From the IMG/VR virus record IMGVR_UViG_2541047120_000012: a DNA stretch of 10,911 bases. One strand, written 5' to 3'. Positions 2,451 through 2,525 of the stretch are shown here, piece after piece. The notes under the pieces were generated by a model. The model had not been told where the DNA came from and did no database searches. It was given only the letters and a program-made list of their open reading frames with translations. The DNA comes from a virus (lineage: Duplodnaviria > Heunggongvirae > Uroviricota > Caudoviricetes). The position numbers and the translations under genes are program-made. Each line of letters begins with the position of its first letter. The stretch's first letter is position 1.

Positions 2451-2459
2451 ACAAAAACC

Positions 2460-2488
2460 TTGACAGGTATCTTTTTTGATACCAAAAT
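2460..2488. promoter_or_regulatory. Divergent promoter/operator: TTGACA (2460-2465), perfect palindrome GGTATC-N6-GATACC (2466-2483), candidate -10 CAAAAT (2483-2488)
   Basis: Perfect 6-bp inverted repeat with a T6 spacer directly abutting a consensus -35 hexamer, in the 75-bp gap between the divergent repressor and RHH genes. Confidence 0.5.
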
Positions 2489-2525
2489 GATTTCACGAGC
2501 TATTAGATGATCACAATATACCACT

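Follow-up and report, generated by a model that had tools for sequence, protein, structure and literature searches.

Comparative sequence evidence for a probable repressor operator within the early promoter of a P88-like prophage and a proposed compact immunity switch around it

A published comparison of the regulatory regions of P2-like phages treats only two types of repressor, those of P2 C and of 186 CI, the second being about twice the size of the first and impossible to align with it, and identified no repressor in phiCTX (PMC3448106). P2 C is reported to bind direct repeats (PMC2995052), and in the P2 record O1 and O2 are 8-bp sites that bracket the -10 of the early promoter Pe. The annotated P2 switch is composed of Pe with the repressor sites O1 and O2 inside it and of a converging promoter, Pc, placed before the first early gene. 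The 186 pR-pL region is likewise presented as a pair of converging promoters with a small DNA-binding protein, Apl, acting between them (PMC7498355). For the repressor c2 of P22, the crystal structure evidenced contacts of Gln37 with operator thymines, and molecular dynamics of the complex showed contacts of Val33 with operator TpA steps (PMC5175364).

The stretch analysed here (10,911 nucleotides, IMG/VR record IMGVR_UViG_2541047120_000012, hereafter the window) is a P88-like (Xuanwuvirus, P2 family) prophage remnant adjoining yecA in Escherichia coli O157:H7. Over 1380-3324 it shows 100% identity with E. coli O157:H7 chromosomes, in which the remnant contains an integrase, a transcriptional regulator, a DUF4761 gene, a replication endonuclease and ParM. 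The immunity region is carried by 525 of 5426 complete E. coli genomes, O157:H7 among them. The only close relative among named phages is Escherichia phage 520873 (Xuanwuvirus, Peduoviridae), with 96% identity to 1380-3324, and weaker relatives are found in Mu-like phages of Burkholderia, Ralstonia and Pseudomonas. No characterisation of the present switch was found in the literature on P88, Xuanwuvirus and CP-933T.

Several features of the element were observed apart from the switch. IS3-family transposase fragments flank it at 9-380 (plus strand), 383-997 (minus strand) and 10467-10902 (minus strand); the left IS3-family element truncates the phage integrase, which has 204 aa here versus 333 aa in strain TR01, so that the copy in the window is unable to excise by itself. 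Plasmid-maintenance genes are present within this P2-family prophage, as a ParM-like segregation ATPase and a partition/stability protein are encoded at 9169-10447 (plus strand), after a P2 gpA-like replication endonuclease of 940 aa; two phage-plasmid survey papers turned up in the P88 literature. Directly upstream of an ORF of 76 aa (5595-5825, plus strand), to which PGAP gives the name 'derepression protein', there are Rfam matches at gathering level to isrK (5341-5415, plus strand, 63 bits) and to the C4 antisense RNA (5451-5538, plus strand, 78.5 bits), the latter being the immunity RNA of P1/P7 and belonging to the same clan as the P4 CI RNA. This region may represent a second, RNA-based layer of immunity or induction for a repressor without a self-cleavage domain. 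The 'derepression protein' gene is widespread in P88-like contigs, including some outside the 80-locus repressor listings, and no specific co-occurrence with the present repressor was seen among these contigs.

The features on which the analysis is based are the following (positions are those of the window; the source of each assignment is given in brackets):

2046-2450, minus strand: immunity repressor gene, 134 aa, XRE-type HTH (phrog_8, Pfam, alignment with P22 c2)
2436-2453, no strand: O2, candidate weaker operator, AATATC-ATTTTT-CATACA (family-wide second site)
2460-2465, plus strand: -35 hexamer of Pe, TTGACA (promoter scan)
2466-2483, no strand: O1, probable main operator, GGTATC-N6-GATACC (position, conservation, co-variation, module swaps)
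2483-2488, plus strand: -10 hexamer of Pe, CAAAAT (promoter scan; spacer 17 bp)
2509-2528, no strand: nearly invariant block GATCACAATATACCACTATG, ending in the ATG of the RHH-like gene (alignment of 40 distinct sequences)
2515-2523, minus strand: candidate extended -10, TGgTATATT, of a leftward Pc (read from the sequence)
2526-2732, plus strand: first early gene, 68-aa Arc-like/RHH-like protein, presumed Cro analogue (phrog_3431)
2749-2952, plus strand: second early gene, 67-aa Cox-like excisionase/repressor (phrog_575)

The repressor belongs to phrog_8 (E 2.6e-14), and its Pfam scores lie under the cut-offs (HTH_31, 24.1 bits for a cut-off of 27; HTH_3, 19.1 for a cut-off of 23), a match best taken as one of superfamily level only. 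Its best PDB sequence matches are P22 c2 chains (E 0.02), with which the N-terminal domain can be aligned without gaps over residues 5-54 (6-55 of P22 c2); the recognition helix comprises residues about 29-40 (VKKLTQLRYEKG), and residues 32 and 36 are aligned to Val33 and Gln37 of P22 c2. No match to any peptidase family was obtained for the 134-aa protein in Pfam, NCBIfam or PHROGs, and the structure model predicted from the single sequence was uninformative (pLDDT 45). The C-terminal tail of the protein (GGNNRIAGRDYNETKGR, encoded at 2046-2100, minus strand) is conserved even in repressors of E. coli, Arsenophonus and Pseudomonas whose HTH regions and operators are unrelated. The gene located downstream of the repressor (start region 1970-2030, minus strand), which encodes 216 aa with a C-terminal membrane helix (phrog_5825, weak Flk-like match), opens with the same motif, NNRVAGRDFHEKN. 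This shared motif may serve an antirepressor for docking, or it may mark the junction of a module.

The record of phage 520873 labels the three switch genes as transcriptional regulator, Arc-like repressor, and Cox-like excisionase and repressor. Consistent labels were given by PHROGs to the first early protein (phrog_3431, 'Arc-like repressor', E 4e-27) and to the second (phrog_575, 'Cox-like excisionase and repressor', E 1.2e-27). Homologs of the RHH-like protein show sub-threshold matches to RHH_5 (best E 0.0017), RHH_7 and NikA-like families; the window protein itself had no Pfam match and no meaningful PDB sequence match, and its single-sequence AlphaFold model, one long helix, was uninformative. 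The Cox-like protein evidenced no BLASTP similarity to P2 Cox and no meaningful PDB sequence match. In O157 genomes the RHH-like ORF is omitted by RefSeq/PGAP, and a 45-aa hypothetical protein on the opposite strand (about 2540-2677, minus strand) is called instead; the plus-strand gene is backed by the phage 520873 record and by PHROGs.

The -35, O1 and -10 all lie within the 75-bp gap between the start of the repressor gene (2450, minus strand) and that of the RHH-like ORF (2526). An earlier note on this DNA had described an immunity switch region flanked by genes for an HTH repressor and for RHH and Cox-like proteins, with TTGACA directly followed by GGTATC-N6-GATACC as the operator of the early promoter; the assignment of the flanking genes was supported, the sequence is as described (2460-2483), and the operator reading agrees with the comparisons reported below. 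Two details of that description have to be amended. The dyad does not overlap the -35 hexamer, it abuts it and fills the 17-bp spacer, and it is not a perfect 18-bp palindrome: it is a 6-N6-6 inverted repeat (GGTATC 2466-2471, GATACC 2478-2483) around an asymmetric TTTTTT core (2472-2477). Its last C is the first base of the -10, the only base that the two have in common. With 10 of 12 matches, Pe was the sole sigma-70-like site found by the promoter scan of 1900-3100; transcription would start near 2495, and Pe is proposed to drive expression of the RHH-like, Cox-like and replication genes.

Perfect 6-N6-6 inverted repeats number nine in the window, and 58 when spacers of 0-10 are allowed; for the O1 pattern, allowing up to 2 mismatches, the expected number is 0.15 and two occurrences were found. 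The dyad is by itself not statistically remarkable. Its context exceeds chance, since it is the only inverted repeat of its kind in the window that adjoins a TTGACA and since this arrangement recurs in 48 related promoters. Two other elements considered in the same region were discarded: a leftward promoter overlapping O1 (TGGTATCAA), whose -10 is without the final T and which is not conserved in relatives, and ATACCA direct repeats at 2479, 2518 and 2545, which are not conserved either, phage 520873 having ATATCA.

Relatives of the repressor were gathered from genomes and viral contigs, yielding about 60 distinct immunity regions with 48 distinct promoter/operator variants (E. coli, Yersinia, Pectobacterium, Gilliamella, Arsenophonus, Pseudomonas and viral contigs). 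A -35 with at least 5 of 6 matches, a spacer of 17 bp and a -10 with at least 4 of 6 matches were each found in 44 of the 48 variants, and in 45 the dyad is centred 15-16 bp downstream of the first -35 base. The two arms of the dyad change symmetrically, as GGTATC/GATACC (window), GGTATA/TATACC, GGTATG/CATACC and GGTATT/AATACC, and also as GGTACG/CGTACC, GGTACT/AGTACC, GGTGTG/CACACC and GGTAAC/GTTACC. Distant repressors are accompanied by unrelated dyads (ATTTGC-N8-GCAAAT, ATGGGTAG-N4-CTACCCAT, GAGATC-N4-GATCTC, GTGCAG-N4-CTGCAC and TGGTCA-N6-TGACCA). The palindrome, on whose conservation in related immunity regions the earlier note had made its proposal depend, is therefore conserved and changes in a compensatory manner. 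One single difference of another kind was seen in an IMG/VR contig (2529292728_000034, L034) and in one further locus, where a G-to-A change in the left half-site (GATATC-N6-GATACC) occurs in an otherwise identical immunity region; this could be an operator mutation or a sequencing error.

The changes in the dyad accompany changes in the recognition helix. With leucine at residue 32 (helix VKK-L-TQL), positions 4-5 of the half-site read AT in 25 of 26 instances (GGTAT), with glutamine (K-Q-(T/A/S)QL) they read AC in 12 of 14 (GGTAC), and with tryptophan (KK-W-TQI) GT in 2 of 2 (GGTGT); overall, residue 32 tracks these positions in 39 of 42 half-sites, counts that overstate the number of events as the lineages are not phylogenetically independent. 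Residue 36, located before YEKG, tracks position 6 loosely (R with C, N with A or T, K mostly with G), and unrelated recognition helices go with unrelated dyads. Operator specificity thus appears to be set by residues of the recognition helix. In the mechanism proposed, a repressor dimer on O1 would occlude RNA polymerase and keep the prophage silent, with one monomer per half-site reading the DNA by its recognition helix; residue 32 would read positions 4-5 of the half-site and residue 36 probably position 6.

Concerning the number of sites, the earlier note had seen only one clear dyad; a second, degenerate site, O2, is found 30 bp to the left of O1, centre to centre. It matches 8 of 12 half-site positions, which in the window alone is not significant. 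When each locus was scanned with the pattern of its own O1, nearly all operator classes showed a weaker copy 30-34 bp leftward of O1, among them classes unrelated in sequence to that of the window, with 1-2 mismatches of 12 in the ATTTGC class, 0-1 in the ATGGGT class and 2 in the GTGCAG and CCATCC classes. In a swap control, in which every pattern was scanned against the O2 region of every lineage, own pairs averaged 3.4 mismatches and foreign pairs 6.0, with no value as low in 20000 permutations; these figures are to be read considering that O2 overlaps conserved N-terminal codons and that the GGTGTG lineages have one half-site only.

O2 covers the start codon of the repressor (CAT 2448-2450) and its first codons, the start codon being positions 4-6 of an O2 half-site. 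At the repressor start, lineages of GGTAT type have xGTATG on the coding strand and GGTGTG lineages start with GTG, and the N-termini are MGTYLP in the ATGGGT lineage and MQI in the ATTTGC lineage. The variable N-terminal peptide would thus be partly dictated by the operator. The centres of O1 and O2 are about three helical turns apart, which would place two dimers on one face of the DNA; from this geometry, O2 probably lets two dimers bind together and may allow autoregulation of the repressor.

The search for further GGTATC/GATACC half-sites elsewhere in the element, which the earlier note had recommended, produced near-matches that are coding by-products. Both are in the Cox-like gene. The GGTATCCC at 2821-2838 (2 mismatches) provides the codons of a Gly-Ile-Pro that is conserved in Cox, and it occurs as well in L095 and L202, two lineages with operators of other types; the site at 2755-2772 (3 mismatches) was likewise rejected as a distal operator. 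A further swap control, over +60 to +480, revealed no enrichment of own-type sites downstream (4.17 vs 4.07 mismatches).

To the right of Pe, the sequence between the -10 and about 2500 varies freely among relatives, and it is followed by the block 2509-2528, which is near-invariant across all repressor specificities (40 distinct sequences) and far more conserved than the flanking spacer and the downstream RHH coding sequence. The Shine-Dalgarno sequence of the repressor (AAGG, complement of 2458-2461) overlaps the -35 of Pe, which requires the mRNA of the repressor to begin on the right side of this hexamer. No other conserved leftward promoter was seen in the promoter scan of 1900-3100 or in the sequences of relatives. 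A repressor promoter facing Pe, the candidate Pc, is therefore proposed to lie in the block: the repressor gene would probably be transcribed leftward from TGgTATATT (2523-2515), starting near 2508, a proposal made with lower confidence than that for O1. The candidate has no -35 match (3 of 6 positions). Variation within the block is highest at the free base of TGn. If correct, and again with lower confidence, Pe and Pc would form a compact face-to-face switch of the P2/186 type.

The block can also be read as an operator of the RHH-like or Cox-like protein, or as an element for translation initiation of the RHH-like gene, with the repressor promoter located elsewhere, an alternative that is somewhat less likely than not. 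It would account for the occurrence of the block only with the RHH-type cassette, for the conservation that extends beyond TGnTATATT (TTAG, GATCAC and the first codons) and for an RHH ATG without a Shine-Dalgarno sequence at normal spacing. However, the block is kept in two viral contigs (L183 and L221) in which the downstream protein is not RHH-like, the only base that varies freely within it is the free one of TGn, and the repressor mRNA has to start to the right of 2462, with no other conserved leftward promoter seen there. Furthermore, the target promoter and the operator of a regulator can coincide, so the operator reading and the Pc reading are compatible. In the same two contigs the block and the first seven codons (MTQxNHD) are kept and the rest of the ORF is unrelated to the RHH-like one, which places a mosaic junction just inside the first early gene.

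As to the protein that uses O1, the earlier note had named the repressor or an RHH/Cox-like protein as the regulator acting on the early promoter through the dyad. The RHH-like and Cox-like genes are encoded right beside the dyad and promoter repression by such proteins is known (Arc in P22, Cox in P2), so that the dyad might be their operator, or be shared with the repressor as by lambda CI and Cro. Natural module swaps make this very unlikely. In L097 and L095 the RHH/Cox cassette is nearly identical to that of the window, yet the repressor (41-45% identical) has a different helix and the dyads are unrelated to that of the window; in L097 the dyad is GAGATC-N4-GATCTC, the RHH-like protein (L144, same contig) is 93% identical to that of the window and the Cox-like protein is near-identical. 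Conversely, relatives from Gilliamella, Pectobacterium and Pseudomonas have a Ner-like first gene, without RHH or Cox, and carry a dyad in the same place; in those of Gilliamella and Pectobacterium a related repressor is accompanied by a GGTATA dyad where its helix is VKKLTQL. The dyad follows the repressor in these swaps, and it is therefore assigned to the HTH protein rather than to either of the other two. No Cro-type sharing of the repressor operator was found, the cassette occurring with unrelated dyads and the dyads without the cassette. Hence the first part of the earlier proposal holds for the repressor and its second part was not sustained; the RHH-like and Cox-like proteins would not use the O1 dyad.

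Instead of binding a protein, the palindrome might work as an RNA hairpin, for example in the leader of the leftward repressor transcript or 5' in early transcription. It can be folded as a 6-bp stem (-8.5 kcal/mol, z -3.0 on the plus strand; -7.6 kcal/mol, z -1.8 on the minus strand), and any conserved palindrome that changes symmetrically keeps a hairpin as well. But the plus-strand hairpin would be upstream of the inferred Pe start and so outside the Pe transcript, the imperfect own-type O2 sites cannot form hairpins, and neither the co-variation with residues of the recognition helix nor the fixed place in the promoter spacer is explained by an RNA structure, which renders this reading highly improbable. 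A chance palindrome without function has a negligible probability, for perfect 6-N6-6 repeats are indeed common in the window but this one is alone beside a TTGACA and its arrangement is kept with compensatory change in the 48 variants.

Based on these comparisons, GGTATC-N6-GATACC is very probably the main binding site through which the HTH repressor shuts the early promoter. As an explanation of the whole region, O1 as the primary repressor operator within Pe, together with a weaker O2 and, with lower confidence, a face-to-face Pc, is assigned a probability of about 0.85, on sequence comparison. A broader proposition, that the P88-like phages and their relatives represent a third type of immunity switch, combining two exchangeable cassettes, an N-terminus coupled to the operator and a residue-to-base code, is more tentative, its probability falling a little short of even. 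If true, cassette 1 would consist of the repressor gene with Pe, O1 and O2, and cassette 2 of the gene for the Cro analogue with the repressor promoter under its control; the first six codons of the repressor would contain the weaker operator, and the start codon (ATG or GTG) and N-terminal peptide would co-evolve with DNA-binding specificity. The code, by which L32, Q32 and W32 correspond to T-, C- and G-type half-sites, would predict heteroimmunity groups from sequence. What the analysis yields is a defined operator with a predicted second site, a candidate promoter for the repressor and a rule of specificity that can be tested, from which, taken together, the superinfection immunity groups of P88-like prophages could be anticipated from sequence. 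It provides a natural series for studying the joint divergence of repressor and operator specificities and no new principle: this is an ordinary kind of switch, in a family in which the repressor and its DNA site change together from phage to phage.

Compared with P2, the present phage belongs to the same family and has the same gene order (integrase, leftward repressor, rightward early operon with a Cox-like gene), and the topology of Pe and the candidate Pc matches that of the annotated P2 switch in a more compact form. The first early gene is RHH-like and the Cox-like gene comes second, unlike P2, in which cox is first. BLASTP of the repressor against P2 C (99 aa) gave 33% identity over 46 N-terminal residues (pairwise E 8e-5), a likeness that shows what seems to be a shared HTH only, the remainder being unrelated and the protein 35 aa longer. 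The earlier note had drawn a comparison with the repeated half-sites of P2-type operators; unlike P2 C, with its direct repeats, the present repressor appears to use inverted repeats, with O1 between the -35 and the -10. A lytic and a lysogenic promoter that converge, Pc being here a candidate, and a distinct small DNA-binding protein that would act between them recall the CI/Apl switch of 186, another member of the P2 family. Within that family the present switch appears to be of neither the P2 C type nor the 186 CI type.

Outside that family, the likeness is to P22 c2, 434 and lambda cI. The repressor has an HTH of XRE type with the N-terminal domain of P22 c2 as its best solved match, and its residues predicted to determine specificity align with Val33 and Gln37 of P22. 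The operator is, as in those phages, an 18-bp site of two-fold symmetry, with an A/T-rich centre that would not be contacted, and it overlaps the core of a promoter; the nearby second site suggests pairwise binding. Adjacent operators in lambda are about 24 bp apart, closer than O1 and O2 at about 30-34 bp. Unlike P22 c2, 434 and lambda cI, the repressor is without an S24 peptidase or RecA-cleavable C-terminal domain, and unlike the situation in those phages the presumed Cro analogue appears to be of another fold and not to share the operator, which here lies wholly within the promoter spacer. Altogether, as judged from these likenesses, the present switch is a classical dyad operator for an HTH dimer of the Cro/C1 type, closest to those of P22 c2 and 434.
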